A DNA stretch of 64,000 bases from an uncultured Bacteroidales bacterium (GCA_963748095.1 CAVVIO010000012.1:23237-87236); one strand, 5' to 3'. Positions 26,560 to 52,132 are shown, numbered from the stretch's first letter. Numbers and translations: made by a program. Notes: generated by a model from the sequence alone, not told the origin.

Positions 26560-26564
26560 CTGGA

Positions 26565-31467: not shown

Positions 31468-31742
31468 TGTAAATTATCCGTTTGTCCGTCTCCGAAATCC
31501 CATTCGAAACCTGTGGCAGCTGTCGACAGATTGGTAAAATTGTAAACATACGGGTCATCACAGGAAAAATTATAGGTGAAAGCAGAACTTGGTCCGTTGG
31601 CATATAGTATAGCTGGTTTGGTTGTATCCGACAGGCAGCCATTGTAATCTACAATCAGTGTTACATCGTTATTCCCAGGGTTGGCATCAACATTCCAATA
31701 TGGATCAGGATTATCAGGCGACAGAAGGAATACTGCTTCCAT
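31464..31742 (-). CDS. PKD-repeat T9SS cargo; fragment 2 of 3 (frame-shifted middle piece)
   Basis: It ends in FEWDFGDGQTDN. The PKD motif continues as NPTHTY at the start of fragment 3. Confidence 0.8.
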   Translation of the reverse strand: MEAVFLLSPDNPDPYWNVDANPGNNDVTLIVDYNGCLSDTTKPAILYANGPSSAFTYNFSCDDPYVYNFTNLSTAATGFEWDFGDGQTDNLQ

Positions 31743-33468
31743 TTACAAAATAATGCCACTTTTGTATCAGTTCCGATTCAGGTGTATTATCATGAAACTG
31801 AAGTTGCTCGTTCGGACATACATTTGTCGAACTCAATGTAAAATCAGGTTTGAGTTTTTTTCCTACCCTTATTTTAATAATAAATGACGTGTCCGTACAT
31901 CCCAGTGAGTTGGTTATGACAAGTCTACTATCATAAATAGCATCAGATGCATATGTATGAGATGTCATATTATTTGTAGTATTCAATGTATTACCGTCAT
32001 CAAATATCCATTCCCGGTTGGTAATATTTTCATCCGAAAGACTTACATCTTTAAAATTCACGGTTAATGACTTGCAGCCCATTGTCGTGTCGACAGTGAA
32101 TAAAGCTGTTGGTTTTTTTATCCGAAGGGATTTACTGCTGGAACTAATGCATCCATTTGCACTGGTAACTTCAAGTGTAGTAACAAAATATTCGTCTCCA
32201 TTTATAACATACTGATCGGAATCAGAGGGTAATGTATATGTGTGTACAACATTTTGAGAAGCAGAAGTAGTTCCATCCTGAAAAGTCCATTTCCAGGAAG
32301 AAGCATTGGTTGATTTATCTGTAAATGTAACATCCACCGGAGTTGCACAGGAATAAGTTTTATCCATTGTAAAATCTGCTTTCACATCTTCCACAGAAAA
32401 ATTCCAGGAAATAGTATCGGCACAATCGGTTCCGGGGGCTGCAATAAGCAGTACCTTATAATCACCGCTTTGCCCGTATGGCCTTACTCCGCTTTGGTTA
32501 TAGGATACTCCGCCTCCGGTACCAATGAATACCCATTGTACTGAACCGGTACCGGTAGAAGTGCTGTTAAAATTAACACTACCGGGACAAATAACATCGT
32601 TGTTTTGAATTGCATCCCCACCCTGGGTTAATGTCCCTTGCGCCACAACATGGTTAACACTAATAGTGGAAGAGGTACTTGCTGAACATCCGTAATCACT
32701 GGTAACCTGAAGATGAACGTTATAATTATTAAACTGATCATATATATGTGAGGGACTTGCTGATTCGGATGAATCACCATCAGCAAAGACCCACAGATAG
32801 GTAAGCGTTCCCGGACCTGTAGAAGTATTGGTAAACTGTACAGTGGCAGGAATATTGCAGGCTGTGGCAGGATTAGCTGTAAAGCCGGCAACAGGTTGGT
32901 TCGCCACATCGATATTCTTTGAAGCATTGGACTGGCATCCGTTATCATCGGTTACCTGCAGAAAAACCTCGTAAGTACCGGTATTATTATATATATAGGT
33001 AGGATCCGGCAAATTGCTGGTAACACCATTTCTAAAATCCCAGTTCCAGGCTGTGATAGGTGCATCCCCTACCTGAGAATTATCCATGAAATTTGCCGTA
33101 TAAGGAACACATCCCTTGACGCCAATAGAGAAATCAGCCGTTGGGGCTTTATATACTGTTACTGTTTTTGAAATCGTGGCCGAATCATTGTGAATAATAT
33201 CTTTAACCACCAGGGTAACTGTGTAATCCTTGGCTAACGAATAAGAAGCTGAAGGATTTGTAAGACTGGAATGGTTGCCATTTCCAAAATCCCAGGAATA
33301 GACAATACTATCACCTGCTGTGCTTAGATTTGTAAAGTTAACTTTTAATACCGGAGTACATCCTGCCTGCTTATCCATCGAAAAATTGGCAGTTACCTGA
33401 GAAAATGTATATAATTCTGAAAAAAATAAAAAAAATATCAACCGGATGGAAGTTGTCAGTATTTTCAC
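31714..33468 (-). CDS. PKD-repeat T9SS cargo/adhesin; fragment 1 of 3 (signal peptide plus N-terminal PKD repeats)
   Basis: A signal peptide is followed by repeated F....GC.P..V.F.N.S....W.FGDG..S....P.H.Y...G.Y.V.L PKD units. Confidence 0.85.
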   Translation of the reverse strand: MKILTTSIRLIFFLFFSELYTFSQVTANFSMDKQAGCTPVLKVNFTNLSTAGDSIVYSWDFGNGNHSSLTNPSASYSLAKDYTVTLVVKDIIHNDSATISKTVTVYKAPTADFSIGVKGCVPYTANFMDNSQVGDAPITAWNWDFRNGVTSNLPDPTYIYNNTGTYEVFLQVTDDNGCQSNASKNIDVANQPVAGFTANPATACNIPATVQFTNTSTGPGTLTYLWVFADGDSSESASPSHIYDQFNNYNVHLQVTSDYGCSASTSSTISVNHVVAQGTLTQGGDAIQNNDVICPGSVNFNSTSTGTGSVQWVFIGTGGGVSYNQSGVRPYGQSGDYKVLLIAAPGTDCADTISWNFSVEDVKADFTMDKTYSCATPVDVTFTDKSTNASSWKWTFQDGTTSASQNVVHTYTLPSDSDQYVINGDEYFVTTLEVTSANGCISSSSKSLRIKKPTALFTVDTTMGCKSLTVNFKDVSLSDENITNREWIFDDGNTLNTTNNMTSHTYASDAIYDSRLVITNSLGCTDTSFIIKIRVGKKLKPDFTLSSTNVCPNEQLQFHDNTPESELIQKWHYFVNGSSIPSVA

Positions 33469-33694
33469 GGGAAAAAGTTTAGTTTAGTAACATACTTCTG
33501 GTGCATAATACTTTATTTTGCCCATCAGTAATGGTTTTATAAAGCAGATTAATTATATCTTTTTTTGTTAAAAATATCATTTTAAAAGTAATATAAAAAG
33601 AAAAAAATCTATCTTGGCATAATATTATTAAAAATATTGTTTCTTAATATTAATAATAATAATTATTTTTCCTGATATTTTTAGCAATTTATAT

Positions 33695-34744
33695 ATGATT
33701 GTCTCCAAAAAGAAGGGTTTTTATACGGTTATACGTACGATTCTTTTTACCCTGATTCTCCCGGGTTGCTTTATCGCTTCTTCGCCATTACATGCCCAGG
33801 ATATACATTTCAGCATGTTTAATGCGAGCCCGTTACTTCTAAATCCTGCCAATACAGGAAATTTCGACGGAGACTGGCGAATTGCAGGTAATTACCGAAA
33901 CCAGTGGCTGGCCATTAGCAAAACTTTCAGGACTGCTGCAGTAAGCTTTGATAAACAAATATATTTTTTAAATCAGAAATTCAGCGGAGGAGTATACCTT
34001 GTAAATGATGAATCGGGATCGCGCGGGCTGATTTTTAACAAAGCTTATGCATCGTTGGGGTATAACCGCGTTATAAACAATAATTATCTGAATTTCGGTC
34101 TACAGTTAGGATATGTTTACCAGGCATTCGACCGGAATATGACCACACCATCGCAATGGAATAATACTACCGGCGGTTTCGATCCGACATTACCAACTCT
34201 GGAACCGAATGAAGGGGAAAACCGTTCGTATCTTGACGTGAATGCAGGTTTGTTATGGAAAAAAAATATCAACATTTTCGTTCCTGAAGTGGGACTGGCA
34301 TTTTTTCATCTGAATTCTCCGAATTGGTCGTTTTATGGATATGACGAACACCAGCCTATACGTTTTACATTACATACAAAAGTAAAAACCAAATTAAACG
34401 ATGAAATATATTTGTTACCAACCCTGTTATATATGCGACAGAAAGGAGCTACTGAAACGATAGTTGGTTCCGGTGTAGGCATGAATCTGTTTGGTAACAG
34501 ATCGAGTGTAAAAGAAATTACCGGCGGATTATATCTTCGTAACGGTTTTTTCAACAGCCCCGATGCCATTTCTTTAGTAGGTGGTGCTACCATCCGAAGA
34601 ATTGAAGTAGCCCTGAGTTATGATATTAATATCTCTGGATTATCGCAGGTAACCGGCTACCGGGGAGCTTTTGAAATATCATTCATATATAAAAGTATCA
34701 GTACAGTGTTGAACAGTTATTCCATTCCGTGTGAAAGGCTTTAG
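33695..34744 (+). CDS. PorP/SprF family type IX secretion system membrane protein
   Basis: The signal peptide is followed by QDIHFSMFNASPLLLNPANTGNFDGDWRIAGNYRNQW, the hallmark N-terminus of PorP/SprF. Confidence 0.85.
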   Translation: MIVSKKKGFYTVIRTILFTLILPGCFIASSPLHAQDIHFSMFNASPLLLNPANTGNFDGDWRIAGNYRNQWLAISKTFRTAAVSFDKQIYFLNQKFSGGVYLVNDESGSRGLIFNKAYASLGYNRVINNNYLNFGLQLGYVYQAFDRNMTTPSQWNNTTGGFDPTLPTLEPNEGENRSYLDVNAGLLWKKNINIFVPEVGLAFFHLNSPNWSFYGYDEHQPIRFTLHTKVKTKLNDEIYLLPTLLYMRQKGATETIVGSGVGMNLFGNRSSVKEITGGLYLRNGFFNSPDAISLVGGATIRRIEVALSYDINISGLSQVTGYRGAFEISFIYKSISTVLNSYSIPCERL

Positions 34745-35621
34745 ATTGAAAATTGGATTAGTATTGGTATCTCTCACCTTTAGCTGGATAGCAAATGCTC
34801 AGCTATCAAACATTGATGAGCTGACACCACAGCAACTTAAAAAATTTGCGAAACATTCCGAGCGTACGGGTGACTTTTTTACCGCTATCTATTTTTTTGA
34901 GCGTTACCGTGAGTTTCGCCCGAATAATACCAAAATTAATTATGAACTGGCCAACCTGCAGCGGGAAGTAAGAAATTACGAAAAAGCAAAAGAACTTTAT
35001 AAAAAAGTTACAGATGCCACTTCTTCCAAAAAATACGTGCTGGCTCGTTATTACTATGCCCAGATGCTGAAATCGACTGGTGAATACGATGAGGCTATAA
35101 AAGAGTTTACCAAATTCCGCAGAGATTACAGGGGCCAGAAAGATTACCGCGATCTTAGCAAACTTGTAAGAAGTGAAATAGAAGGCTGCGATTCAGCCAA
35201 AGTTATTATTGAACATCCACTGAATGTGACGGTTGAGGATCTGAACTCCACCGTAAACGGTCCTCATATCGAGTTATCTCCTATTCCCGTGGATGATACT
35301 ACATTTTATTATGCATCACTAAGGGTTGATTCTCTGGTTTATTTTAACAGTGATAATGTTGATTCCGCTATACCTACCCGGCAGTTTTATGTAGCAAAAA
35401 AGAAAGGACTCGACTGGATTGGTGGCAAAACCTTACCCGGGCCGATAAATATACCAGGAGTAGAAACTGGAAACGGAGTACTCTCGAGAGACGGGAATCG
35501 TTTTTATTTTACACGTTGTTTTAAGAACTGGCAGGGTAAAAATATCTGCAGTATTTACCTGACCAAAAAAAATGGGACACCAATGGTCGAAGCCAGAAAA
35601 GCTTCCCCCGTTGATAAATGA
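34731..35621 (+). CDS. OmpA-family protein with TPR and TolB-like repeats; fragment 1 of 2
   Basis: A signal peptide and TPR-like helices (YELANLQREVRNYEKAKELYKK) are present. The frame breaks in an A8 run at 35565-35572. Confidence 0.8.
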   Translation: MKGFRLKIGLVLVSLTFSWIANAQLSNIDELTPQQLKKFAKHSERTGDFFTAIYFFERYREFRPNNTKINYELANLQREVRNYEKAKELYKKVTDATSSKKYVLARYYYAQMLKSTGEYDEAIKEFTKFRRDYRGQKDYRDLSKLVRSEIEGCDSAKVIIEHPLNVTVEDLNSTVNGPHIELSPIPVDDTTFYYASLRVDSLVYFNSDNVDSAIPTRQFYVAKKKGLDWIGGKTLPGPINIPGVETGNGVLSRDGNRFYFTRCFKNWQGKNICSIYLTKKNGTPMVEARKASPVDK

Positions 35622-36852
35622 CCCCAACTATACATCTACTCAGCCTGCCCTGGGACGTACTGCCAAAACCAACCGGGAGATACTTTATTATGTATCCGAT
35701 CGTCCGGATGGGCGTGGTGGACTCGACATCTGGTATACCGTATGGAATGATAAAAAACAACTATTCAGTAAGCCAAGAAACCTGGGATTTAAAATCAATA
35801 CTGCCGGTGACGAGATGACCCCGTTTTATAATTTATCAACCCGTAACCTGTATTTCAGCTCTAACGGACTTCCCGGGATCGGCGGACTAGATATTTTTAA
35901 AGCTTTTGGGGAACGAAATCGCTGGAGTAATATAAATAATCTGGGATACCCGATAAATTCAAGTTACGATGATCTCTACTTTACGGTAAACAAAAGTGGG
36001 GAATTCGGCTTTTTCGTTTCCAACCGTCCGGGTGGCAAGTCCATTAATAATGAAACCTGTTGTGATGATATTTACTATTACCGTTGGAATGAATTCATTC
36101 ATATATCGGTTACCGGGACCATTTATCCCTTTGAAAAAGACCGGTTCGGAAGAAAAAAGGACCTGTCTAACTTCGACTTTATGAATCCGGATTCTTCCAT
36201 TAAACCACTCGATCACGCAGTTATTGCTCTGTACATGCTCGACAAAGAAACAAAGCAGTACGAATTTATGGACAGGGATACCACCGGAAAGAATGGTAAA
36301 TTCTTTTTCGATATTCAACCTGATCAGGATTATGAATTCAGGATGGAAGGATTTCAGTATTTCGATAGTAAAGAGTACTTGTCTACCCAGTTCTTCAACT
36401 TTTCAGATACGATCGGGCTACCGCCTATATGGGTAAATGTGCTGAGTGAAAAGCCGATTGTCCTTCACAATATTTATTATGAATTCAACAAAGCTGAATT
36501 GACGGAAGATGCCAAGCACGTGCTTGATACTACTTTACTTGTAATGTTAAAAGAAGCTCCTGAATTTATTATCGAGGTAGGGTCACATACCGACAGTATT
36601 GGTGGTGCTGAATATAACCTGCAACTCTCACAGGAAAGAGCTGATAATGTAGTCAAGTACCTGATAAGTAAGGGCATATCTGCCAACAGACTAGTTGCAA
36701 AAGGATATGGTTCGGAAATACCCATTGCTCGAAATACAAATCCCGACGGAACAGATAATCCGGCAGGCAGGGAAATGAACAGGAGAACGGAATTCAGGGT
36801 TATTGGTACCATAGGTGGCGAGACCGAGGATGAGGATTACGGGGATAATTGA
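35572..36852 (+). CDS. OmpA-family protein; fragment 2 of 2 (WD40-like/TolB-type repeats and a C-terminal OmpA peptidoglycan-binding domain)
   Basis: DRPDGRGGLDIWY-type repeats are present. The OmpA_C motifs are GSHTDSIGGAEYNLQLSQERADNV...NRRTEF. Confidence 0.85.
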   Translation: MGHQWSKPEKLPPLINDPNYTSTQPALGRTAKTNREILYYVSDRPDGRGGLDIWYTVWNDKKQLFSKPRNLGFKINTAGDEMTPFYNLSTRNLYFSSNGLPGIGGLDIFKAFGERNRWSNINNLGYPINSSYDDLYFTVNKSGEFGFFVSNRPGGKSINNETCCDDIYYYRWNEFIHISVTGTIYPFEKDRFGRKKDLSNFDFMNPDSSIKPLDHAVIALYMLDKETKQYEFMDRDTTGKNGKFFFDIQPDQDYEFRMEGFQYFDSKEYLSTQFFNFSDTIGLPPIWVNVLSEKPIVLHNIYYEFNKAELTEDAKHVLDTTLLVMLKEAPEFIIEVGSHTDSIGGAEYNLQLSQERADNVVKYLISKGISANRLVAKGYGSEIPIARNTNPDGTDNPAGREMNRRTEFRVIGTIGGETEDEDYGDN

Positions 36853-39205: not shown

Positions 39206-40042
39206 TTAATCCACCAATAGCTGTTCCAATGCTTCATCAACTGTTTGAACAGGCTGTCGGCATACTTTGTTTTTGCAGACATAAATAAAAGTCTTTCCAG
39301 GAACATGCCGGTTTTCAAGTAACGGAAAATTACTTTGGCTGGTAGCTCCTGCGAGTATAATGCCTGGTAAATAGTATTTCTCCAGTTCACCCAGTTTTTC
39401 GAGGGCTTTTTCTCCGGCGATCACAACTTCATGTGGTTCATATACCATAGAAACTAAAAGCTGTGCCCAGCTGGAATAAAACTTACCATGACAGATCACA
39501 TTCTCCTGTACATGTGCATACATTCTCTTTGCGATTTCTGCATATTCCATTTTATCAAAATAACCTGCCAGTGCAAAAAGGTTGCGTGCCATCGACGAGT
39601 TGGACGAAGGAATTACATTATCCGAAATATCGTATTTTCTGACAACCAGTTCCGGATCGAGTCGGGAAGTATAATAGAATAAGCCTGTTTGCTTATCATA
39701 GAAATGTTCCAGTGTATATTCCGTAAGATCTCCGGCAAGTTGCAGCCATTTCTCGTTGAAAGTTGCCCTGTATAAGGCAATGAATGCTGCAATGGTAAAG
39801 CTGTAATCGTCCAGAAAACCGTTAATAGTGGCTTTGCCTTTTTTAAAATTCCGGTAAAGCCTGTTGTCATGTTGTAACATTGCAGAACTAATAAAATCAG
39901 CATTTTTCAATGCATAGTCCAGGTATTCTTTTTTCCCGAATACACGATAGGCATCTGTAAATCCTTTCAGCATCAGTGCATTCCACGAGGTTAATATTTT
40001 ATCATCAAGGGCAGGGACGCACCCGCATGGTTTCTCTGACAA
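39206..40042 (-). CDS. YyaL/DUF255 family protein; fragment 2 of 2 (C-terminal (alpha/alpha)6 barrel)
   Basis: LDDKILTSWNALMLKGF is the conserved continuation of the family. It is separated from fragment 1 by about 3 frame changes. Confidence 0.8.
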   Translation of the reverse strand: MSEKPCGCVPALDDKILTSWNALMLKGFTDAYRVFGKKEYLDYALKNADFISSAMLQHDNRLYRNFKKGKATINGFLDDYSFTIAAFIALYRATFNEKWLQLAGDLTEYTLEHFYDKQTGLFYYTSRLDPELVVRKYDISDNVIPSSNSSMARNLFALAGYFDKMEYAEIAKRMYAHVQENVICHGKFYSSWAQLLVSMVYEPHEVVIAGEKALEKLGELEKYYLPGIILAGATSQSNFPLLENRHVPGKTFIYVCKNKVCRQPVQTVDEALEQLLVD

Positions 40043-40088
40043 TGAGTTTATTTCTTAGATCGCTCCAGCAAATCAATCACAAGCTTCT

Positions 40089-41243
40089 TCATCTATACCC
40101 GATTGATGCGGCAAGTTTTTGACGGTAAGATATAGTATGAAGAATATTTTTCCCGTGCTCCCAGTTTCCCTGTGCAGTAACATTATAATACCGGCAAAAT
40201 AAATCGCTGTCTTCTCCCAGAATCGTATCGATTTCTTTTTTTGTCCACACATAATACTTTCCCTCCTCGCCTTCCGAATCAGCATCCAGTGAAGCAAAAA
40301 ATCCACCCTCCGGTGAAGTCAGTTCTCGTTGGATAAAATCCAGCGTCTCTTCCACAACCTGCTGGAAGCGGGGAATACGTGTTTTCTGATAAGCCTCACT
40401 GTAAAGACTGACCAACTGGGCATTGTCGTACAACATTTTCTCAAAATGAGGAACTTTCCAATACATATCAGTTGAATACCGGGAGAATCCACCTCCGATG
40501 TGATCATATATGCCGCCACCTGCCATTTTTTCAAGGGTAAGAATCACATGTTCCAGCGCCTCACGATTGGTCGAAAAATGTGCATACATTAATAAAAATT
40601 CGTAATTATCAGGCATCGGAAATTTGGGGGCATGGTTTTCACCGCCTTCTTCCCTGTCAAAATCTTTTTGCCAGTTTTTATACAGCGTCTTTAACTCATC
40701 CGGATTATAAGCCTTCGCCTGTATTTCTTCCAAAAAAAGTTCGTTGGAAACCATTCCTTTCCGGATATCTTCCGCCTGTTGTTCCAGACCGGTCCGCTGT
40801 GTACTGTAGAGTTTTTCGAGCGATGATAACATGCTTATCCAGTTTTCCCGTGGAAAATAAGTACCTCCGTATACAGGCCTGCCATCTGGCAGCGCAAAAC
40901 AATTAAGCGGCCATCCGCCATGTCCGGTAAGCAACTGAACAGCTTCCATATACACCTGGTCGATATCGGGACGTTCTTCGCGATCGACTTTAATACATAC
41001 GAAGTGTTCATTCATGATCCTTGCCACTATCTCATTTTCAAAGGATTCTCTTTCCATTACATGGCACCAGTGGCAGGCAGCATAACCGATGCTTACCAGT
41101 ATCATTTTATCTTCTTGTTTTGCTTTTGCAAGCGCTTCCTCTCCCCACGGAAACCAGTTAACCGGATTATGGGCATGTTGCAACAGGTAAGGACTGCTTT
41201 CATTGATCAGATGGTTGGTATATTTTTGAACAGATGATTTCAT
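40089..41243 (-). CDS. thioredoxin-domain protein of the YyaL/DUF255 (SPATA20-like) family; fragment 1 of 2
   Basis: The N-terminal [28 protein letters not shown]...[11 protein letters not shown] thioredoxin-like motif is followed by the start of the (alpha/alpha)6 domain. Confidence 0.85.
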
Positions 41244-41977: not shown

Positions 41978-42730
41978 ATGACACAATCAAACATGGAAAA
42001 TCAGGAGAATAGTAAACCAAAGAACACATCTGCCAACAAAGAAAAAACCACATCAACCGGCAAAACATCTACCCCCCGGAAGACAACAGGCAATACTACC
42101 AAAAAAACCACAGGTAATAAAAGTACCTCTACAACAAAAAAGACTACTGCAAGAAGACCTGCTACCCGGCCAGCAACGAGAAAACAACCCGTAAAAAAGC
42201 AGACTACTGTTTCAGGAGCCGGAGCTAAATCAGGTACAGGGACAACAGTTAAAAAACCACCTATACAGAAAAAAACTGTAACAAAAACTCCTGTGCGATC
42301 AAAAGTACCGCAACCCGATAAAAAAACCAATTACCTGGATTCCAATCCTGTTTATTCATCCAGCATGCCCGATGAAAAAACAATCAGCGAACTGGCAAAA
42401 AGTGAAATGGGCCTGGAAGATTATCTCAAGGGCCTGAACAAGAAGAATAACCCTGTTAAAAAATCACCAAAAGTAAAAAAGGACAAAAAAGTAAAAACTG
42501 ATAAACCCGGTCAACTAATGAAAAAAGCTAAAAAAAGCCTGAAGAAAACAGAAGAAAAAGCCACAACTTTAAAGAAAGACCTTAAAAAAGCCAAACATAA
42601 AAAGGCAGGTAAAAAGAAAATTAAAGTGCTGGATAGTAAATTATCAAAAATTCTGAAGAAACTACGATTAAAAAAATCGGAACTAAAAAAAGAAAAAAAG
42701 AAATCGAAAAAAGAAAAAAGCAAAAAATAA
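41978..42730 (+). CDS. Lys/Thr/Pro-rich, highly basic low-complexity protein (histone H1-like composition)
   Basis: 250 aa with KKTT/KKxxKK repeats throughout. There is no signal peptide or TM helix. Confidence 0.5.
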   Translation: MTQSNMENQENSKPKNTSANKEKTTSTGKTSTPRKTTGNTTKKTTGNKSTSTTKKTTARRPATRPATRKQPVKKQTTVSGAGAKSGTGTTVKKPPIQKKTVTKTPVRSKVPQPDKKTNYLDSNPVYSSSMPDEKTISELAKSEMGLEDYLKGLNKKNNPVKKSPKVKKDKKVKTDKPGQLMKKAKKSLKKTEEKATTLKKDLKKAKHKKAGKKKIKVLDSKLSKILKKLRLKKSELKKEKKKSKKEKSKK

Positions 42731-43781: not shown

Positions 43782-44189
43782 ATCTTTATACTTTTTAGTT
43801 ATTTTCTATCTTATTTAGTAGTATAAAGATACAATATTTTGCTTTCGATTATTACGTAAGTGCTTGATATTAACAATATTTAACAATACTAATTCAATAT
43901 AAAACTCATATTATCAACTGACTTTGCAATAGCTGGCTGTTTTTAAAAAGCATATTTTTAACAATAATTTATATTAATAATATACGTTTACAACTCAGGC
44001 CCCAATATTATTAATTAAGGAATATTTTAAAGTCCTGCCCGCTTTTAGTAATCATTTGTTATACAGCAGGAATTATTGGTGTTCTGTTGTTGAATGTGTA
44101 TCTAATGTCAGAAAGAAAATAATGCAACATCCAATTTTGAAAGCTTATATTTACAATTTGAAAACAAATTAATTAAACAGGGAAATAGT

Positions 44190-44855
44190 ATGGTTACCTA
44201 CGAAGAAATAGCAAAAATGATCGACCATTCGTTGCTGAAACCTACCCTTACCGATAAGGAAATACAGGAAGGATGTGAAATTGCAGCTCAATATAACGTA
44301 GCTTCCGTATGTGTAAGACCTGCCGATGTGAAGTTTGCATCTCAACTTTTGAAAAACAGCGACGTGCTGGTAACAACGGTTATCGGTTTTCCGCACGGAT
44401 CCACCACTACTCTTACCAAAGTAACCGAAGCACTCGAAGCCATTGAGAACGGGGCCAAAGAACTGGATGTAGTTCTTCATATCGGCAAATTATTATCGAA
44501 ACAATATGCCTATGTGAAACTCGACCTGGAAGCAGTAACAAAAGCGTCCCACGAGAAAAATGTACCGGTAAAAGTAATATTTGAAAATTGTTACCTGGGA
44601 GAAGAAGATATTATTGCCGCATGTAAAATCTGTAATGAAATAGGAGTCGATTTTGTTAAAACCTCCACCGGATACGGAACCGGAGGCGCTGAAGACAAGG
44701 ACTTGAAAATAATGCGGAAATATGCCAATCCGGAAATTCAGATAAAAGCAGCCGGCGGCGTGCGCACCCTCGAACGGGCAATAGAAATTAAAGAGCTGGG
44801 CTGCACACGGTTTGGTTGCACTGCCACGGTGGGAATACTGGAGCGGTTGAAATAA
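44190..44855 (+). CDS. deoC: deoxyribose-phosphate aldolase
   Basis: 221 aa. IDHSLLKP, VIGFPHG, and the Schiff-base Lys in FVKTSTGY are present. Confidence 0.9.
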   Translation: MVTYEEIAKMIDHSLLKPTLTDKEIQEGCEIAAQYNVASVCVRPADVKFASQLLKNSDVLVTTVIGFPHGSTTTLTKVTEALEAIENGAKELDVVLHIGKLLSKQYAYVKLDLEAVTKASHEKNVPVKVIFENCYLGEEDIIAACKICNEIGVDFVKTSTGYGTGGAEDKDLKIMRKYANPEIQIKAAGGVRTLERAIEIKELGCTRFGCTATVGILERLK

Positions 44856-45239
44856 GAGACTTTTAAATAACTAAATATAGTTCGATCAGCCTTATCGCTA
44901 ACCTTAGGCCTGTTTTTATCTTTTTTATTCTTACAAGCGGAAATAGTGGGAGGTGTTGACCTTACGCTATGGTGACCGATCTTTATTGCAATGCATCGTA
45001 TGTGTCGGTGGACAGGGAATTTTTGAAACGTAACATTAGCAACTTACCCAACTTTTCTGCCATAAGAATGCCTGATTTAAAAAAATTGCCATACAAAGAA
45101 TATATCCGTTTAAATGAAGTACCTTTAGTATAGAAAAGTCGGTAAACAAATTTCCACAGAATTTATCAGTATCATATTTCAAGCTCACCGTACAGAAGTC
45201 ATCCAGCAACATCCGGGGATATTACGAATAACTACTAAA

Positions 45240-46340
45240 ATGAAAAGCATATTTAATTTATTCGAAAGGTTAAGTGCAGATAAAATCAGCTTTTTGTACC
45301 ATGGAATTCTTCATGATGAATTTACTGAAAAAATTATCGACCTTATTGAAAAGAATATCAGTACTAATAATGATGAAGTTTCAATAAAAAATAAGATCTC
45401 TTTTCTGGTGGCTGAGTCTTTTCAAAATGTTTTAAGACATAGCGAAATAGATAAAGACAATGGAAAAAATATAAGGAGTTTGGGTGTTTTTATTTTAAGA
45501 AACAGAAACAATTTATATTATATTACCTCTGCTAATCTAATTAATAATAAAGATATTGATGAGTTAAAAGTTAAACTTTCACATGTAAATGAGCTGGATA
45601 AAGACAAACTAAAAGAGCTTTATATTGAAATCCTGAATAATACGGGTTTTTCCGCAAAAGGTGGCGCAGGATTAGGTCTCATTCAAATGGCAAATAAATC
45701 AGGTAATAAGATAGAATATGACTTCGAAAAAGTGAATGACAACTATTCGTATTTTTATTTCCATCTAAAAATCAAAACGAAACTGCCTGATGATAAAAAC
45801 ATTTCAGAGCTTTTAGTATCTTCCGAAAAAGAACTTTGCTCATACATGTACAGTCATGACAGTTATCTGGCATATAAAGGAAATTTTTCTCAGGATAATG
45901 TTTTAATTCTGTTAAAAATTATTGAGAGAAATTTACAGGCAAACCCTTTTGAATATACAGGTATTAAAGCAATAATATTTACCATTCTCACTGAACTTTT
46001 ACAAAATATCAGTAAACACGCATATCAAATTAAAAATAAAAAAGAAGGGATATTTATGCTTGAGACCTCTTTAAATAAATATATTATCAGTACAGGAAAC
46101 TATATTGAAAATACCGAATCTGAGATTATTGTAAAAAAATTAAATCTGCTTAATGGTTTAGATAAAGATGCCTTAAAAACATTGTATTTAAACAAAATCA
46201 GAAATAGTGAGATTGATAGTGAAGGGAATGCCGGCATTGGATTTATAGAAATTGCAAGAGACAGCAGCGATAAAATTGAATATAATATATCAGTGATAAA
46301 TGAGAAATATTCATTTTTAACAGTAAGTGTAAAAATATAA
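45240..46340 (+). CDS. tandem-duplicated SiaB-like (GHKL/anti-sigma-type) Ser/Thr protein kinase
   Basis: There are two homologous halves of ~180 aa. Each starts with ..FLYHG/LAYKG-type segments and ends with an ATP-lid motif (GGAGLGLIQMANKSGNKIEYDF and GNAGIGFIEIARDSSDKIEYNI). Confidence 0.6.
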   Translation: MKSIFNLFERLSADKISFLYHGILHDEFTEKIIDLIEKNISTNNDEVSIKNKISFLVAESFQNVLRHSEIDKDNGKNIRSLGVFILRNRNNLYYITSANLINNKDIDELKVKLSHVNELDKDKLKELYIEILNNTGFSAKGGAGLGLIQMANKSGNKIEYDFEKVNDNYSYFYFHLKIKTKLPDDKNISELLVSSEKELCSYMYSHDSYLAYKGNFSQDNVLILLKIIERNLQANPFEYTGIKAIIFTILTELLQNISKHAYQIKNKKEGIFMLETSLNKYIISTGNYIENTESEIIVKKLNLLNGLDKDALKTLYLNKIRNSEIDSEGNAGIGFIEIARDSSDKIEYNISVINEKYSFLTVSVKI

Positions 46341-46343
46341 GCT

Positions 46344-46721
46344 ATGATAAATAAACTACACATAACAGGCGATGTAGACGTGCCTGAAATAGTACTAGAT
46401 GCAAAAAATAACCATTTTGAGATTTCCGGAAGATCCATTCCTGAAAATGCAAATACTATTTTTATACCTGTTTTAGAATGGCTGAATCAGTACTTCATGA
46501 ACCCTAATAAACAAACAAATTTTATTTTGAAGCTGGATCATATTAATTCTTCTTCATTAAAAAAAATTACTGAAATATTGGCACTACTCGAGAAAAACCA
46601 TAACAAAGGCTGTGATATAAAAGTTCTATGGTTTTATAAGATCAATGATACTGCAATGGAGAGAAAGTGCATGGAGCTTTTAAATTTATTTAAAATCCCA
46701 TCTGAAATAAATTCATTTTAG
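46344..46721 (+). CDS. DUF1987 / SiaC-like regulatory phosphoprotein
   Basis: The start lies 4 nt after the kinase stop. LHITGDVDVPEIVLDAKNNHFEISGRSIPENANTIFIPVLEWLNQY is the DUF1987 signature. Confidence 0.65.
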   Translation: MINKLHITGDVDVPEIVLDAKNNHFEISGRSIPENANTIFIPVLEWLNQYFMNPNKQTNFILKLDHINSSSLKKITEILALLEKNHNKGCDIKVLWFYKINDTAMERKCMELLNLFKIPSEINSF

Positions 46722-46991
46722 TTCCTTTTCTTTGATGCAAGAGGTCAGGAAATGTAATAAAATAAATGAGGGAAACAGCATCAGTTAAACAATGGAAGCC
46801 TGAACAATACTTCCATATAATATAATTTTAATATGTGTGAATTATACAAATTATTTATCTAATTGTGTAATGCCCTTCCTGATTAGTACGATTACCTTTA
46901 TTCCGGGAACATTTATTCATACACTAAAGCTATTGGTATAGTGTTATATTTATCTGACTCCCAATTGTAAGTTACTTCATCGATTCAGGAT

Positions 46992-48587
46992 ATGAATGAA
47001 AAAGGCAAATCGGAAACGTTAGATGTTGTGAACATTGAAAAAGCAAAACGTGCCGCTGAACTGGTTATTGCAAACACGGAGAAAGCAAAGCGTGCTGCAG
47101 AATTAGTTATTGCAGATAAAGAGCTCATATATCAAAAAGATGAAAAGGCAAAACGTGAAGCAGAGTTAGTACTTGCAAACGTGAAAAAAGCAGAACGTGA
47201 AGCAGAGTTAGTCCTTGCAAACATAGAGAAAGCAAAACGTGCTGCAGAATTAGTCATTGCTGATAAAGAGCTTATCTACCAAAAAGAAGAGAAAGTAAAA
47301 CGTGCAGCAGAGTTAGTACTTGCAAACACAGAGAAAGCAAAACGTGAAGCAGAGTTAATTATTGCAAATATAAAAAAAGCAAAACGTGAAGCGGAATTAG
47401 TCATTGCAAACAAAGAACTTTCTTATCAGAAAAGAGAAAAGGCAAAACGTGCCGCAGAGCTGATTATTGCAAAAGTCGAGAAAGCAAAACAAGCATCAGA
47501 GATAGTCAATGAAAAGATAGAGAAAACAAAACGCGCGGCAGCGTTAGTTGTGACGAAGAAAGAACTTTCTTATCAGAAAAGAGAGCAGGCAAAACAAGAG
47601 TTAGAGATAGCCATTGAAAAGTTAGAGAAAGCAAAACGTGCAGCAGCTTTAGTTGTAACAAAAAAAGAACTTGCATTGGCAAAAGAGAAAGAAAAACTTG
47701 CTGAAGAGTTAATCATTTTAAATAAACGGCTTTCAAATCAAATCTCAGTGCGCAAGCTGGCAGAAGAGAAGTTACTCCAATTAAATCATGAATTAAAAAC
47801 TACTTATGAGAAATTGGAACATTTTAGTAGTTTAATCTCAGAAAGTGTTGATTATGCTAAAAAAATACAGAATTCTATCATTCCTGACTATCAAAAATTT
47901 TTTGATTTTTTCCCGGACTCTTTTATTCTTTCACAACCTAAAGATGTATTAAGCGGTGACTTTTTTTGGTCGCACAATAAAAATAATAAAATAACTTTTG
48001 CAATTGTTGATTGCACCGGACACGGTATTCCTGGTGCATTACTGAGTGTCATAGGGATCATCTTACTTAACAAAGTGGTGATCGAAAAAGAAATAATTTC
48101 TCCAACTGAGATTCTGGGTTCAATTAATAAAGAGTTAAAAAACCTTTTTAATGCCGGTAACGAAATGGTTGATGATGGAATGGAAATCAGCATTATTTCT
48201 TATGACAAACTAACAAAAGAAATGATAATAGCCCAGACATCAAGAAGTGTTTTAATTATTGATCCCGATGGTACATTAACCACTTTTGATTCTGATGTAT
48301 TTACTATTGGCGGTATATTATCAAGAAATAAAACAACAACGTTTTTAGATGACAGTTATCAAATAAAAAGGGATTCAATGCTGTATTTATTTTCAGATGG
48401 CTATACCGACCAGTTTGGTTCGGATTTAAATATTAAATACGGCATACAAAACTTCCATGAACAAATAAAGACTATTTATAAACTTCCGGCGCAGGAACAA
48501 CGTGAAATACTATTAAACCGCCATTTACAATGGAAAGGTAATATGCAACAAACCGATGATATTACAGTAATTGGGATAAAATTTTAA
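46992..48587 (+). CDS. PP2C/SpoIIE-type protein phosphatase with a long N-terminal repeat (coiled-coil) region (SiaA-like role)
   Basis: The C-terminal PPM motifs are LSGDFFW, DCTGHGIPGA, SDGYTDQFG, QTDDITVIGIKF. The N-terminal ~230 aa are EKAKRAAELVIAN-type repeats. Confidence 0.85.
   Translation: MNEKGKSETLDVVNIEKAKRAAELVIANTEKAKRAAELVIADKELIYQKDEKAKREAELVLANVKKAEREAELVLANIEKAKRAAELVIADKELIYQKEEKVKRAAELVLANTEKAKREAELIIANIKKAKREAELVIANKELSYQKREKAKRAAELIIAKVEKAKQASEIVNEKIEKTKRAAALVVTKKELSYQKREQAKQELEIAIEKLEKAKRAAALVVTKKELALAKEKEKLAEELIILNKRLSNQISVRKLAEEKLLQLNHELKTTYEKLEHFSSLISESVDYAKKIQNSIIPDYQKFFDFFPDSFILSQPKDVLSGDFFWSHNKNNKITFAIVDCTGHGIPGALLSVIGIILLNKVVIEKEIISPTEILGSINKELKNLFNAGNEMVDDGMEISIISYDKLTKEMIIAQTSRSVLIIDPDGTLTTFDSDVFTIGGILSRNKTTTFLDDSYQIKRDSMLYLFSDGYTDQFGSDLNIKYGIQNFHEQIKTIYKLPAQEQREILLNRHLQWKGNMQQTDDITVIGIKF
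47026..47720 (+). repeat. intragenic tandem repeats (39-nt/13-aa unit EKAKRAAELVIAN, often extended by KELxYQK)
   Basis: About 15 recognisable copies are visible at both protein and DNA level (recurrent gagaaagcaaaacgtgc.gcaga.ttagt.attgc). Confidence 0.85.
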
Positions 48588-48751
48588 TGAACAACCTCGC
48601 TAAGTTCGTTCGACTTACCACCCGATAAAATATCAGGTTCATCGTGCTTTACTTCTGAAATTTGAGTCTCACGTATAAAATGACTTTTATCTAACGGTGA
48701 TCTGGCAAGGGCGCCATCTCCACATCCTTCTTATCCTGTGATACTTTAATG

Positions 48752-49534
48752 TTATCGAACCAGGTATAACAGGTTACTGCCGGTCCCCACTCCGGAGCTG
48801 TTTCCACCATGAAAAGTAGAAAAGTAGAAACGATCGACTTTTTCTCCATTGGAAGTAAAGCGCAATCCTTTTTTCAGCAGTACCTGTTTTCCGTTTACCC
48901 ATACTTCTACTTCGCCATCGTATTTGTCGCCGGCACTGTTTATTTTTACCCGTTCCGTCATCAGGTACCATTTCCCTCTTTCGAAGGTAACCTGTTCGCC
49001 CGAAGGATATAACAGCGGCATGTCCTCGCCCCATTTGCCGGGCTTGTCCATGTGATAGAGATATAAGACGGCATGTCCTTCGGATCGCCACATAAAACGG
49101 GCGGTGAATCCATTGGTACCGTCGCAGGTCTGTCCGCCACTGCAAAGGTCTCCTGCTGCGAGGCCCGGCAGTTTACCTCCCAGCTTAAAACTGAAATTGT
49201 TACTGAACCGCAGCCAGTACGACATGTAATACTGGTCGTGTTCCGGCAATACTATGGAAATCTGGGCTCCGGTTTCTCCTGGTCCTACTCCACCTTCGGG
49301 ATAGGTGATTCGCAGGGATTGCCGGCCTGATTCTGCAACCGAACTATCGACCATCGAACGGGTTTTCATTCCGTCCTGCCAGCCGGCTGACTGAAATCCG
49401 TCGGATTGCCACATATCGATATCATAGGCTGTACCTGCCGGTTGTTTTTCAAATCCGGTGGAGATACTGTACTGGGCGTTAACCGTTAGTGTGATGGTTA
49501 CCGGGATCAGAAATGTGAGGATGTAGTTTTTCAT
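48752..49534 (-). CDS. secreted polysaccharide-lyase-like protein (concanavalin-like fold, PL14-type). The C-terminus continues in another frame to 48691.
   Basis: It has a signal peptide plus GGKLPGL, FTARFMWR, GKW..., EVWVNGK and STFHGG motifs. The expected terminal W..YTWFDNIKV motif is encoded in a different frame downstream of ~48790. Confidence 0.5.
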   Translation of the reverse strand: MKNYILTFLIPVTITLTVNAQYSISTGFEKQPAGTAYDIDMWQSDGFQSAGWQDGMKTRSMVDSSVAESGRQSLRITYPEGGVGPGETGAQISIVLPEHDQYYMSYWLRFSNNFSFKLGGKLPGLAAGDLCSGGQTCDGTNGFTARFMWRSEGHAVLYLYHMDKPGKWGEDMPLLYPSGEQVTFERGKWYLMTERVKINSAGDKYDGEVEVWVNGKQVLLKKGLRFTSNGEKVDRFYFSTFHGGNSSGVGTGSNLLYLVR

Positions 49535-49595
49535 TTTTAAGTCTGTGTTTTTTGTTGAATTATTACATTGTTGTAAGCAATAACCTTCTATTAAT

Positions 49596-49830
49596 CGTCA
49601 TTGCGAAGGAGGAACGACTGAAGCAATCTCCTGCTAAAGTATAATGAATATTCTAATTAGTGAAATCTCATTCAAAAGAAGGAGACTGCCTGCCTGCTGC
49701 AGGCAGGCCACGCTATCGCTCGCAGTGACGTTCTTTTAGTAATTATTTCATTCAAAAGAAGGAGATTACCTGCGGTGCGCTCCGTTGCGTTACGGTTGCC
49801 ACATCGATGTACCTCCTCTTCGTATGACGG
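49596..49830. repeat. cluster of three REP-like intergenic elements bounded by CGTCAYTGCGA...GCARTCTCC-type termini
   Basis: The copies are at 49596-49631 (forward), 49681-49730 and 49761-49830 (inverted). There is an 18-nt direct repeat TCATTCAAAAGAAGGAGA at 49668 and 49748, and a 10-bp-stem palindrome at 49688-49708. Confidence 0.6.
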
Positions 49831-49875
49831 AAACTACAAAGGACTTTTTCAAACATCTTCATCAAAGTTATGTAA

Positions 49876-50148
49876 TTATTTCCACCATTCAGCCGGCTTC
49901 GGGCCCATAACAAAGGACATGGTTCCGCCCTGCATGATGGCATCATGGGAAAGAATCGTGGAATCCAGTTTTTTCCCGTTTAGGGAACAGGACTGAATAT
50001 AAATGTTCTCTTTGCTAAGGTTCTCTGCTTCTATCAGCAGTTGTTTGCCATTGCCCAGTTGTACCTGTATCTCGGGAAATGCCGGGCCGTTGACATAATA
50101 AAAGGGCTGGCCGGCATTCGGGAAAAAGCCTAAGCGCTGCAAATACAT
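49876..50148 (-). CDS. GH92 family glycoside hydrolase; fragment 2 of 2 (C-terminal ~85 aa)
   Basis: LGFFPNAGQPFYYVNGPAF...NIYIQSCSLNGKKL...GGTMSFVMGPKP is the conserved GH92 C-terminus. It is in another frame from ~50131. Confidence 0.7.
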   Translation of the reverse strand: MYLQRLGFFPNAGQPFYYVNGPAFPEIQVQLGNGKQLLIEAENLSKENIYIQSCSLNGKKLDSTILSHDAIMQGGTMSFVMGPKPAEWWK

Positions 50149-52093
50149 ACCACGAACTCATGGCGCCACTGTCCTCATTTCCGGGATACCCTTTTTCCGT
50201 GTATTTCTCCCGCATCATTTTCTTTACCCAATAGCTGGCCAGATCGGGCCGGCCGGAATAATGAAACGACTGGATAGCCAGGAAAGCCGGTTCATTATCA
50301 TAGCCAATGAGGTTGTGCTCCAGTCCGTAACTGAGTCTGTCAGAAAAGTTCGTAGCCCCTCCGCAAAGATCCACCAGTTTGGGAAAATCGTGGGGAACAA
50401 AGTATGAATAGGTCCATGAATTGGCTTCGTAAAAATAGTTGTGCCATGAACCCCAGTTTTTGGCCGGATCGATTATCACCCAGTTACCGTTTTCATCTTT
50501 CGGACAGATAAAACCCTTGTACCCCCCGCTTTCGAGTTCCGGATCCCAGAGGTTTACCCACTTATGGCTTCTATCGAGGTATTTCTTGTAATCGGCAGTT
50601 TGTCCCAGTCCGTTTGCCATTTCCGAAGCACAAAAGTCGTTATAGGAATATTCCAGGCTAACCGAGCAGGACATGGTACCTGCAGGTATCCAGCCAAGCG
50701 ATTTGTAACTGGCTGCTGCCTTATCCATCTTTGCCGGATCGGCAGAGCTCTGCGGACCCAGCCGCTGACTGTCGGCATCGTATTGAATGATCCGGTAAGC
50801 ATCCTGCCAGTTGACCCCCGGTACTTTTTTCACGTACGCATCGGCAATGATATTGTCGACGTTGTTGCCTCCCTGCTCACGGAACATATCGTGACCGGCA
50901 ATAAAGGCATCCTTCACCAGGTGATTGCGGTTGAACCGGGTAATGAACGAATTTACATTATCCTTCACCATTGCGGGATTGATCAATACCATGAGCGGGA
51001 ACACGGTGCGCCAGGTATCCCAGGCGGCATAGTGGTCGTCCCACAATACGGCGCCTTCCTTATACCCTTCCATATCGTTGGTACGGTCGCGCGGCATCAG
51101 CATGCTGTGGTACATGGCTGTATAAAAGATCTTCCGGGCAACCGTATCTTCCGTACTGATTTTTATTTTATCCAACTGGTTGTTCCATGTATCGTATGCC
51201 TGTTGTTTTACTGCCTTGTAATCCCATCCGGGAATTTCCCCGGCAAGCCATTTGGCTGACTGATCGCTGCTTTTGAACGAAACAGCTATTTTCAGGTAAA
51301 CCGTATCGTTTTCCGAGGTGTTGAAATGCAAATAAGCCCCTACCCTGTCGTTCACCTGTTCCAGTTGTGTGGAGGATTTTCCCTTCATCAGTTCCTTGTT
51401 GCGCCATACGCCATAAGAAACGGGCTTTTTACTGGTTTCGGCCGTGAACCATACGCGGTATTGTCCATCGCCGAAGCCGCCGCTGTAGCGTCCGTGTCCG
51501 CTTATCCGGCCGTCCTTGTCAACGGTTACATCCGCTTCGCTTACTTTACCGCCTACTTCGGTGGCAATGTCCATTGGAATGTTGTGGGTGACATCGAAAA
51601 CCAGCACGGATGAATCGCTTTTGGGATAGATGATGCGGTAGATCGCCGAATGGTACGACGGGGTGACCTGTACCCGGATATTGTACCTGTTGAGTCTGAC
51701 GGAATATTCGTACGCCCGGGCCGTCTCCTCCGACTTCGGGGAATCGTGTCCCTGTTCGGTGTAATTCAGTCCGGTTTGCGGACTAATGAACACCATACCG
51801 TATTTCCCCCAGCCGGTGCCGCTGGCATGTAACTGGCCGAATCCCCGGATGGGTTGGTCGGGCGAATAACCGTCGTGTCCGCCTTTCCTGGTTTCGGGAC
51901 TGGGATTAATGGATGCAAAGGGAAGCTGCGGCCCGATCACACAGTTACTGATATTGCCGTCGGCTACCCCGATAAACGGATCGACAAAACGCACAGGATC
52001 CTCTGTAAACTGAACGGATGAGCTGTTGCAGCCGGAACTGAACGAAAAGATTACCGGGACTAAAAGAAACAGAAGGAGATTGTTTTTTTTCAT
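50015..52093 (-). CDS. GH92 family glycoside hydrolase (putative alpha-mannosidase); fragment 1 of 2
   Basis: It has a signal peptide with lipobox-like SSGC. GH92-like motifs are present: FVDPFIG, GFGQLHASGTG, YDNEPAF, GNEDSGAMSSWYVF. Confidence 0.7.
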   Translation of the reverse strand: MKKNNLLLFLLVPVIFSFSSGCNSSSVQFTEDPVRFVDPFIGVADGNISNCVIGPQLPFASINPSPETRKGGHDGYSPDQPIRGFGQLHASGTGWGKYGMVFISPQTGLNYTEQGHDSPKSEETARAYEYSVRLNRYNIRVQVTPSYHSAIYRIIYPKSDSSVLVFDVTHNIPMDIATEVGGKVSEADVTVDKDGRISGHGRYSGGFGDGQYRVWFTAETSKKPVSYGVWRNKELMKGKSSTQLEQVNDRVGAYLHFNTSENDTVYLKIAVSFKSSDQSAKWLAGEIPGWDYKAVKQQAYDTWNNQLDKIKISTEDTVARKIFYTAMYHSMLMPRDRTNDMEGYKEGAVLWDDHYAAWDTWRTVFPLMVLINPAMVKDNVNSFITRFNRNHLVKDAFIAGHDMFREQGGNNVDNIIADAYVKKVPGVNWQDAYRIIQYDADSQRLGPQSSADPAKMDKAAASYKSLGWIPAGTMSCSVSLEYSYNDFCASEMANGLGQTADYKKYLDRSHKWVNLWDPELESGGYKGFICPKDENGNWVIIDPAKNWGSWHNYFYEANSWTYSYFVPHDFPKLVDLCGGATNFSDRLSYGLEHNLIGYDNEPAFLAIQSFHYSGRPDLASYWVKKMMREKYTEKGYPGNEDSGAMSSWYVFAALRLFPECRPALLLCQRPGISRDTGTTGQWQTTADRSREP

Positions 52094-52132
52094 AGGTCTG
52101 TTGTAGTTTTATATAAAAGGCTGTAAAAAAGC

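Follow-up and report, generated by a model that had tools for sequence, protein, structure and literature searches.

The 64-kb stretch of DNA analysed here, from an uncultured Bacteroidales bacterium (GCA_963748095.1, CAVVIO010000012.1:23237–87236; hereafter the window), carries a locus of three plus-strand open reading frames (ORFs; 45240–48587) encoding a tandem SiaB-family protein kinase, a SiaC/DUF1987 phosphoprotein and a PP2C phosphatase. We propose, with a probability of roughly 0.7, that the locus constitutes a self-contained SiaABC-type partner switch, which acts through residue Ser69 of SiaC on an unlinked and probably non-cyclase target, and in which the phosphatase receives its input through a helical stalk. 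This proposal is built on the domain identities of the three proteins, their intact catalytic and acceptor residues, the fold of the kinase, the linkage of the genes across a family, the absence of GGDEF genes from the loci, and the exchange of a domain in the phosphatase.

For comparison, we used 80 related loci with flanks of up to 10 kb per side, plus positions 35–58 kb of the window (81 sequences, and 1056 ORFs for clustering). Gene-order counts come from 79 usable sequences, namely 78 of the 80 fetched loci and the window, and for the neighbourhood counts genes were called with a simple ORF finder, labelled by BLAST and screened by a crude hydropathy test. One of the related loci, L083, is an orthologous locus (85% identical) from another sample, the phosphatase of which is designated P0122.

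Tandem kinase and SiaC phosphoprotein

The first gene (45240–46340) encodes a 366-aa protein that a preliminary description of the window had read as two fused SiaB-like halves of a GHKL-type serine/threonine kinase. This reading holds: Pfam DUF6272 has two matches in the protein (E 6e-63), the match to NCBIfam NF038262 ('SiaB family protein kinase') covers two stretches and scores 228 bits (cut-off 85), and the halves align with one another at 34% identity (E 2e-23). The Pseudomonas aeruginosa equivalog model NF038264 scores 113 bits, under its cut-off of 225. In a phmmer search against the PDB, the protein matches P. aeruginosa SiaB (PaSiaB; 6KKO_A, E 5e-9) via its C-terminal half (aa 245–350).

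The AlphaFold2 (AF2) model of the kinase, based on an alignment of 108 sequences (the window protein and 107 family members, end to end, 34–60% identity), has a predicted local distance difference test score (pLDDT) of 85 and a predicted template-modelling score (pTM) of 0.84, and shows a GHKL alpha/beta sandwich in each half. The pTM value implies a fixed mutual arrangement of the two halves. The best Foldseek match is PaSiaB (6KKO chains A and B; target-normalised TM-score 0.85–0.86, root-mean-square deviation 2.4–2.8 Å), and the next matches include the anti-sigma kinases SpoIIAB (1TID, 1TH8, 1L0O), UsfX (8IH8, 8JZT) and RsbW (6M37), with probabilities of 0.98–1.0 and target-normalised TM-scores of 0.5–0.7. 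The ATP-binding fold, which had been named in advance as the test of the kinase assignment, is present.

Both halves carry the motifs of a GHKL kinase. Specifically, the N-terminal half (aa 1–183; 45240–45788) has an N-box, E59-x2-Q62-N63, and a G-box, K140-GGAGLG-L147, while the C-terminal half (aa 184–366; 45789–46337) has an N-box, E252-x2-Q255-N256, and a looser G-box, G332-N-A-G-I-G-F. By internal alignment of the two halves, E59 occupies the N-box position of Glu61, the predicted catalytic residue of PaSiaB (PMC7647112). Among the 108 aligned sequences, residues E59, Q62, N63, G142, A143 and G146 of the N-terminal half are invariant, and K140, G141, G144, L145 and L147 are conserved in at least 90%. 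In the C-terminal half, E252 and N256 are invariant and only G332 and G334 of the G-box reach 90%; this G-box is degenerate in some relatives and in fusion proteins. Altogether, 32 positions are invariant or near-invariant in the N-terminal half versus 21 in the C-terminal half. We read the modelled kinase as a covalent pseudo-dimer of two SiaB-like GHKL domains, tending to asymmetry, which would mimic the SiaB homodimer.

The second gene (46344–46721) starts 4 nt past the last base of the kinase stop codon and encodes a 125-aa protein, the assignment of which to DUF1987/SiaC is borne out by Pfam PF09345 (E 4.5e-29, 101 bits, cut-off 24.5) and by ungapped alignments to the structures of P. aeruginosa SiaC (PaSiaC; 6K4F and 6KKO, E ~1e-12). 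The equivalog model NF038265 scores 73 bits, under its cut-off of 150. The predicted phospho-acceptor is Ser69 (codon 46548–46550), in the motif H66-I-N68-S69-S-S, which aligns with Thr68, the mapped phospho-site of PaSiaC (PMC7647112). In an alignment of 83 SiaC sequences (81 from the window and related loci, one duplicate from the window, and a partial PaSiaC), the acceptor column always holds a hydroxyl residue, Ser in 59 and Thr in 24, and the flanking positions are N68 in 81/83 and Y66 in 82/83. The only exception to Tyr66 is the window SiaC, which has His66 (codon 46539–46541), either a private substitution or a sequencing error; the L083 ortholog has Tyr. In the PaSiaC–SiaD structure, a Tyr at this position contacts the partner (PMC8457831). 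The window SiaC also has Cys109 in a column that is Gly in 78/83 sequences.

Outside the phospho-loop, PaSiaC grips the SiaD stalk with residues D29, Y31 and D79 (PMC8457831). In the window SiaC, the corresponding residues are Arg30 (Arg in 62/83), Ile32 (Leu in 49/83) and Ala80 (in a column that is hydrophobic across the family). The SiaD-gripping side chains are thus not kept, which fits a SiaC partner other than SiaD. A SiaC homolog search for domain fusions gave only 10 matches, all of them stand-alone proteins.

Phosphatase with a helical repeat stalk

The third gene (46992–48587) encodes a soluble 531-aa protein, in which Pfam SpoIIE matches aa 332–530 (E 6e-17), in agreement with the PP2C phosphatase expected at this position. 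Its closest solved relative is the PP2C domain of SiaA (6K4E, E 7e-24), and the NCBIfam SiaA model NF038263 scores 135 bits over aa 230–531, under its equivalog cut-off of 700. The catalytic domain (aa 300–531; 47889–48584) is modelled with pLDDT mostly 80–96 and retains its metal-binding residues. Specifically, the SiaA active-site residues D457, D474, G477, D600, G601 and D653 (PMC7647112) correspond to D323, D340, G343, D469, G470, and D522 or D523 of a DD pair, and these residues are invariant in an alignment of 15 phosphatases, both repeat-bearing and membrane-anchored. The catalytic domain is preceded by a non-repeat helical linker (aa 233–299; 47688–47888), which leads into the PP2C fold and contains a conserved 'LISESVDYAKKIQ' helix; linker residues S285, Y288, A289, I292 and Q293 are invariant in all 15 proteins, whichever N-terminal segment they bear.

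The N-terminal segment of the phosphatase is a repeat array of about 220 residues (~aa 16–232; 47037–47687), the units of which have lengths in multiples of seven: 14 aa (EKAKRAAELVIANx) and 21 aa (EKAKRAAELVIADKELIYQKx). At the DNA level, 4.2 copies of a 147-nt period (76% matches) with 42-nt sub-periods are detected by Tandem Repeats Finder, and the array contains ten EKxK[RQ] unit starts. A degenerate DNA pattern for AEL[IV]IAN has 9 matches versus 0 expected, all of them within the phosphatase gene. Between the window protein and the 85% identical P0122, the array differs by a 14-aa deletion and a 7-aa insertion, indicating that it evolves in heptad multiples. The AF2 model predicts, by DSSP, helices at residues 6–135, 143–218 and 225–296, with no globular or membrane domain among them. 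Consistent with the preliminary description, which had a repeat region standing in place of a membrane or HAMP sensor, neither a HAMP domain (Pfam scan) nor a credible transmembrane segment was found in the protein.

Comparison with relatives shows that the N-terminal segment has been exchanged. The most similar PP2C proteins (P0131, P0136, P0145, P0146, P0206 and P0221; 356–385 aa) have an N-terminal membrane domain, and the two with the closest PP2C domains (P0131 and P0136; 64–67% identity) bear it in place of the repeats. At the loci that could be examined, these membrane-type phosphatases are encoded after tandem kinase–SiaC pairs (L085 and L086, and L002 for P0136). In the window and in L083, the repeat stalk replaces the membrane domain, with the junction just 5′ of the linker helix LISESVDYAKKIQ. 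Furthermore, the PP2C adjacent to SiaC has a predicted transmembrane segment in ~30 of 33 related loci and the repeat in none of them. The N-terminal swap in the phosphatase is therefore the feature truly specific to the window lineage. The membrane domain, presumably the ancestral sensor of this phosphatase clade, contains the motif GIIDWxTGYELSFQFFYFIPL in P0131, P0136, P0145, P0146, P0181, P0203, P0206 and P0221; in P0136, the one membrane-type protein scanned, Pfam finds the SpoIIE domain only.

Elsewhere, the repeat is widespread. Among the 120 best phosphatase matches listed, most align to the N-terminal half only and share the repeat, and 21-residue EKEKRAAELxIANKELxFQN units directly precede HisKA/HATPase, GGDEF+HD-GYP or other PP2C domains, often after PAS domains. 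Many repeat-bearing proteins of the database fall within the series P0123–P0240, among which P0132, P0169 and P0171 combine the helical repeat with GGDEF and HD-GYP. Four other repeat-bearing PP2C proteins belong to a different PP2C subfamily (~40% identity), indicating that the combination arose more than once. No Pfam model matches the repeat at threshold, and no description of it was found in the searchable literature; two precomputed labels on repeat proteins, PF24081 (PH_SLA1) and PF24433 (DUF7556), are treated as spurious because rescans are sub-threshold or lack a significant matched stretch. Coiled-coil linkers have been argued to make inputs exchangeable among PPM, histidine kinase and GGDEF outputs (PMC12143880). 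The swap described here offers a clean example of such coiled-coil input exchange between phosphatases, histidine kinases and cyclases, and it flags a widespread helical repeat for which there is no curated family.

The siaC and phosphatase genes are separated by a spacer of 270 nt (46722–46991, plus strand), which is conserved in L083 (271 nt, ~80% of columns identical), while only 13–14 nt follow siaC in relatives with a membrane-type phosphatase (L085 and L086). The spacer probably carries a separate promoter for the phosphatase gene. It contains no Rfam family; the sole match in the window at the gathering threshold is a tRNA (15650–15722). The presumed promoter of the kinase–siaC pair would lie in the 384-nt intergenic region upstream (44856–45239, plus strand, as defined by the ORF map). 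A scan of 44000–49000 with the sigma-70 consensus, which is not appropriate for Bacteroidota, gave 23 sites versus 19.3 ± 4.1 in shuffled sequences; exact TAnnTTTG −7 boxes were not found, and the only matches are to the relaxed Bacteroidetes −7-like pattern TAnnTTT. A terminator scan gave no excess over shuffles.

Family-wide linkage and the search for an effector gene

The tandem kinase defines a large family. In a 90%-clustered database, the kinase matches 391 clusters with E≤1e-5, of which the 120 listed are almost all ~345–410 aa long; in a library clustered at 50% identity, it matches 329 clusters with E≤1e-30, and 1600 when the limit is relaxed to E≤1e-10. Among GTDB species-representative genomes, a pattern search gave at least 510 stretches that encode a relative. 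Cultured carriers include Nafulsella turpanensis ZLM-10, Cesiribacter andamanensis AMV16 and Flavobacteriales bacterium DA487. The carriers are mostly Bacteroidota (Bacteroidales, Marinilabiliales, Flavobacteriales, Cytophagales, Chitinophagales and Sphingobacteriales), with some Chlorobi-labelled metagenome-assembled genomes (MAGs), and NCBI records call the relatives 'SiaB family protein kinase'. The family is defined by a kinase of ~360–370 aa with two DUF6272 domains and by siaC as the next gene on the same strand, and the window locus has each of these features. The kinase duplication noted in the preliminary description is thus correct as an architecture, but it is not a local fusion, since it is standard in the family. 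The name DUF6272 was not found in the searchable literature.

The linkage of the three components extends across the family. Of the 74 sequences with a gene downstream of the kinase, 63 have siaC there, immediately adjacent and in the same orientation, and in 56 the gap is ≤10 nt. A PP2C gene directly follows siaC in ~34–35 of 60 (34 by BLAST label plus one ambiguous), convergent in 24–25 and on the same strand in 10. Within ~4–5 genes, a PP2C is found at 47 of 79 loci, which is an upper bound because the cluster used as its label (c2) includes a few non-PP2C members. Natural fusions pair the three components solely with one another. In particular, P0098, P0113, P0314, P0341, P0344 and P0359 (~500–520 aa) fuse the tandem kinase to SiaC, and P0337 (1371 aa) joins a Reg_prop beta-propeller/Y_Y_Y sensor, a SpoIIE PP2C and a tandem SiaB kinase. 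At eight loci (L037, L040, L044, L046, L060, L061, L069 and L078), mostly from Chlorobi-labelled MAGs, 2–4 tandem SiaC paralogs follow one kinase, which hints at several outputs or a phospho-sink.

No candidate effector gene was identified beside these components. The motif GG[DE]EF is absent from all six reading frames of the window and from the 1056 ORFs, Pfam scans of 26 window proteins reveal no GGDEF, EAL or stand-alone sigma factor, and no linked sigma factor was found in any locus examined. The preliminary description was therefore right that a diguanylate cyclase is missing from the window, but this is no local peculiarity: the motif is likewise missing from the 80 related loci, and a large family of the FCB group normally lacks the cyclase beside the module. 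The question of the output target likewise concerns the whole family and not the window organism alone. Apart from the three components, every gene cluster is limited to at most 10 of the 81 sequences, so that a conserved fourth gene is rejected and no candidate effector emerges from the neighbours. The annotated neighbour clusters are housekeeping genes (zinc ADH, MltG/YceG, ACT, MGS, PcrB, NdpA, metallo-beta-lactamase, Mur ligase and thioredoxin-like), and further clusters, read by eye from the sequence, are DapF, GyrB, PBP1a and S9 peptidase. The shared neighbours reflect lineage-specific synteny, and on the Pfam-annotated contigs of closer relatives the flanks are unrelated. DUF1987 proteins are widespread and have been proposed to regulate 'adjacent proteins' (PMC8457831, eLife 2021); unlike in that proposal, the tandem-kinase family has no conserved adjacent protein. 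The 'new effector pairing' suggested for the window locus is accordingly kept here as a hypothesis.

The genes flanking the locus are as previously described. Upstream lies deoC (44190–44855; TIGR00126, E 3e-67), and downstream, in convergent orientation, lies a PL14 polysaccharide lyase gene (48752–49534, minus strand), followed by a GH92 gene (50015–52093, minus strand). None of the three proteins of the locus has a PADLOC match, and a role in anti-phage defence was rejected. The lyase and GH92 genes are contained in a block of 46–55% GC (48681–52100) surrounded by DNA of ~32–38% GC. An independent ENA assembly with an identical phosphatase protein and the same gene order stops at window position 48681; since it ends exactly at the edge of the GC block, this suggests a horizontally acquired or strain-variable island of carbohydrate-active enzymes, or an assembly join. 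The GH92 gene (692-aa ORF) has an apparent frameshift near its 3′ end, with an odd Arg/Pro/Thr-rich tail, and a 90-aa ORF in another frame (49876–50148), which overlaps this end, may hold the displaced C-terminal part.

Several other features of the window were recorded. On the minus strand at 39206–41243, a stop or frameshift seems, by eye, to have divided one thioredoxin-domain/DUF255 (YyaL-like) protein into adjacent ORFs of 278 and 384 aa; this could be a pseudogene or a sequencing error. On the plus strand at 21946–27224, an unusual signalling pair is formed by a 1537-aa protein, which has a PPDK_N (pyruvate phosphate dikinase, ATP-binding) domain and a weak receiver-like match, and a LuxR-type response regulator encoded directly after it (26565–27224). 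A 250-aa low-complexity protein rich in Lys, Thr and Pro (41978–42730, plus strand) has no Pfam match. Finally, two PKD-repeat proteins (one with a CHU_C sorting domain), PorP/SprF, TPR and OmpA-family proteins at 29107–36852 form a type IX secretion context, consistent with a Bacteroidota origin of the window.

Proposed switch, alternatives and known systems

In the switch that we propose, the tandem kinase would bind SiaC and phosphorylate Ser69, and the PP2C phosphatase would remove the phosphate. If Pseudomonas is a guide, whether SiaC, or the kinase–SiaC complex, is free to bind a third protein would depend on the phosphorylation of SiaC. The gene for this third protein would lie elsewhere in the genome, and the protein is probably not a diguanylate cyclase of the SiaD type. 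The signal would enter through the phosphatase, in most relatives by way of a membrane, TPR or seven-transmembrane sensor. The helical stalk of ~280 residues (~220 aa of repeats plus the non-repeat linker) is most likely a parallel coiled-coil dimer and would control the phosphatase by bringing two PP2C domains together via the conserved linker helix, as in RsbU-type PPM phosphatases, which are activated when their coiled-coil linkers dimerise (RsbU study, eLife 2025, PMC12143880). The window phosphatase would be an extreme case, with a stalk but no sensor in front of it, and may be constitutive or a physically tuned dimeriser, responding, for example, to temperature or ionic strength.

Several points weigh against this proposal. 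Because of the 270-nt spacer, the phosphatase gene is no longer tightly co-transcribed with the other two genes, and the close kinase relatives P0004 and P0005 have no adjacent PP2C at all. His66 and Cys109, at positions of a near-invariant Tyr and a near-invariant Gly, could mean that the function of the window SiaC is altered or weakened. The AF2 monomer of the repeat region is of moderate confidence only (pLDDT 44–87) and is silent on the oligomeric state. Furthermore, as the genome is incomplete, an unlinked GGDEF protein is a possible target.

The output could instead be centred on the kinase, as with SpoIIAB and RsbW, an alternative that we regard as unlikely. The tandem kinase would then sequester a target, such as a sigma factor or some other regulator, which unphosphorylated SiaC would release, and one half of the kinase, plausibly the less constrained C-terminal half, would bind the target while the other half is catalytic. 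The SpoIIAB dimer binds one sigma-F asymmetrically, and the kinase modelled here, with good fold matches to SpoIIAB, UsfX and RsbW after PaSiaB, with a G-box that is strict in the N-terminal half only amid unequal conservation overall, and with a pTM indicative of a fixed pseudo-dimer, would suit such a role. No linked sigma factor gene is present in any locus examined, however, and the catalytic Glu/Asn N-box is kept in both halves, so that neither is an obvious pure binding domain. SiaB has been described as an anti-sigma-like component (PMC7647112), and disruption of Slr1658, a distant superfamily member, alters transcription in Synechocystis (PMC7555055), but Pseudomonas, the only system studied, sends its output via SiaC and not via SiaB.

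It is less probable still that the classical output has been kept in unlinked form, with SiaC activating a helical-stalk diguanylate cyclase encoded elsewhere in the genome. The sequence in hand amounts to 64 kb of that genome, and proteins that combine the repeat with GGDEF and HD-GYP do exist, but GGDEF proteins are scarce in many Bacteroidota, and GG[DE]EF is absent from the window and from the ≤10 kb on each side of the 80 loci. PaSiaC reads repeated motifs on a parallel coiled-coil stalk (PMC8457831), yet the side chains with which it contacts SiaD are not conserved in the window SiaC.

The same docking of PaSiaC, on two repeated motifs of the parallel coiled-coil SiaD stalk (PMC8457831), raises the highly speculative idea that Bacteroidota SiaC proteins recognise parallel coiled-coil stalks generally, and that the repeat stalk of the phosphatase is a multivalent docking platform for unphosphorylated SiaC. 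If this long shot were true, the kinase–SiaC pair would be a trans-acting regulator of a class of stalk-bearing enzymes, with feedback on its own phosphatase.

Least probable of all is a module that is decaying or non-functional in the window genome, in which relaxed selection would explain the swap, the separation of the phosphatase gene and the unusual SiaC residues (His66 and Cys109). Although the spacer is long compared with the 13–14 nt of relatives and at least two nearby genes (GH92 and YyaL-like) look frameshifted, the three ORFs are intact with all checked catalytic residues preserved, L083 retains the three genes, the repeat phosphatase and the spacer, and the independent assembly has an identical phosphatase protein and gene order.

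We therefore favour the SiaABC-type switch acting through SiaC on an unlinked target. To our knowledge, work on the SiaABC switch has been confined to Pseudomonas, in which it serves solely to activate one diguanylate cyclase, and serine/threonine signalling has been little studied in Bacteroidota. In a family with neither a cyclase nor a conserved neighbour, the switch must plug into something else, and identifying the partner of the Bacteroidota and Chlorobi SiaC proteins would establish a new regulatory output of DUF1987 proteins. The tandem kinase, in turn, is a naturally occurring test case for asymmetry among GHKL anti-sigma-type kinases.

The phosphatase stalk resembles the signalling-helix linkers of histidine kinase, GGDEF and PPM proteins in that the repeat stands directly N-terminal to the output domain, is all-helical, has a length in multiples of seven, and is common to histidine kinase, GGDEF/HD-GYP and PP2C outputs. 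Unlike these linkers, the window stalk is far longer (~280 helical residues), is built of a specific 14/21-aa repeat, EKxKRAAELxIAN[KELxxQx], and has no preceding sensor domain. Both kinase halves are also distantly related to Slr1658-type regulators (NF047703; E 3e-13, 49.6 bits, under the superfamily cut-off of 100). Slr1658 is a SiaB-superfamily protein that likewise has no known diguanylate cyclase, and only a transcriptional phenotype has been reported for it (PMC7555055).

With RsbU/RsbV/RsbW and SpoIIE/SpoIIAA/SpoIIAB, the locus shares the three-part logic of a PPM phosphatase, a small phosphoprotein antagonist and a GHKL kinase. The kinase model folds as SpoIIAB, UsfX and RsbW do, the metal-binding aspartates of the PP2C domain are intact, and, as in RsbU, a coiled-coil linker is predicted to lead into the PPM domain (PMC12143880). 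The phosphoprotein differs in that it is a DUF1987 protein and not a Pfam STAS protein, although PaSiaC is structurally related to STAS (PMC7647112, PMC8457831). Unlike the Rsb and SpoIIA systems, the locus has no linked sigma factor, and its kinase is not a homodimer but has two domains fused in one chain.

The closest counterpart is SiaABCD of P. aeruginosa (PA0172–PA0169). Among solved structures, the window PP2C is closest to SiaA; the kinase has the SiaB fold, with the catalytic Glu/Asn N-box and the GxAGxG lid; the DUF1987 protein has a hydroxyl residue at the Thr68 position, in the loop conserved as Y-x-N-[ST]-S; and the kinase and siaC genes are adjacent and almost abutting. The two systems differ in gene order (B-C-A versus A-B-C-D), in the tandem of two SiaB domains in the kinase, in the acceptor (Ser, not Thr), in the SiaC residues that contact SiaD, which are not conserved, and in the scores of all three window proteins, which fall under the NCBIfam equivalog cut-offs (113/225, 73/150 and 135/700 bits). 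Furthermore, SiaA is an inner-membrane protein with two transmembrane helices and a HAMP domain, whereas the window phosphatase has neither and carries a helical repeat stalk, and the window locus contains no siaD or other GGDEF gene. Since both the membrane/HAMP phosphatase and the co-transcribed cyclase are absent, the locus is expected to work like the SiaABC switch and not like the complete SiaABCD module.

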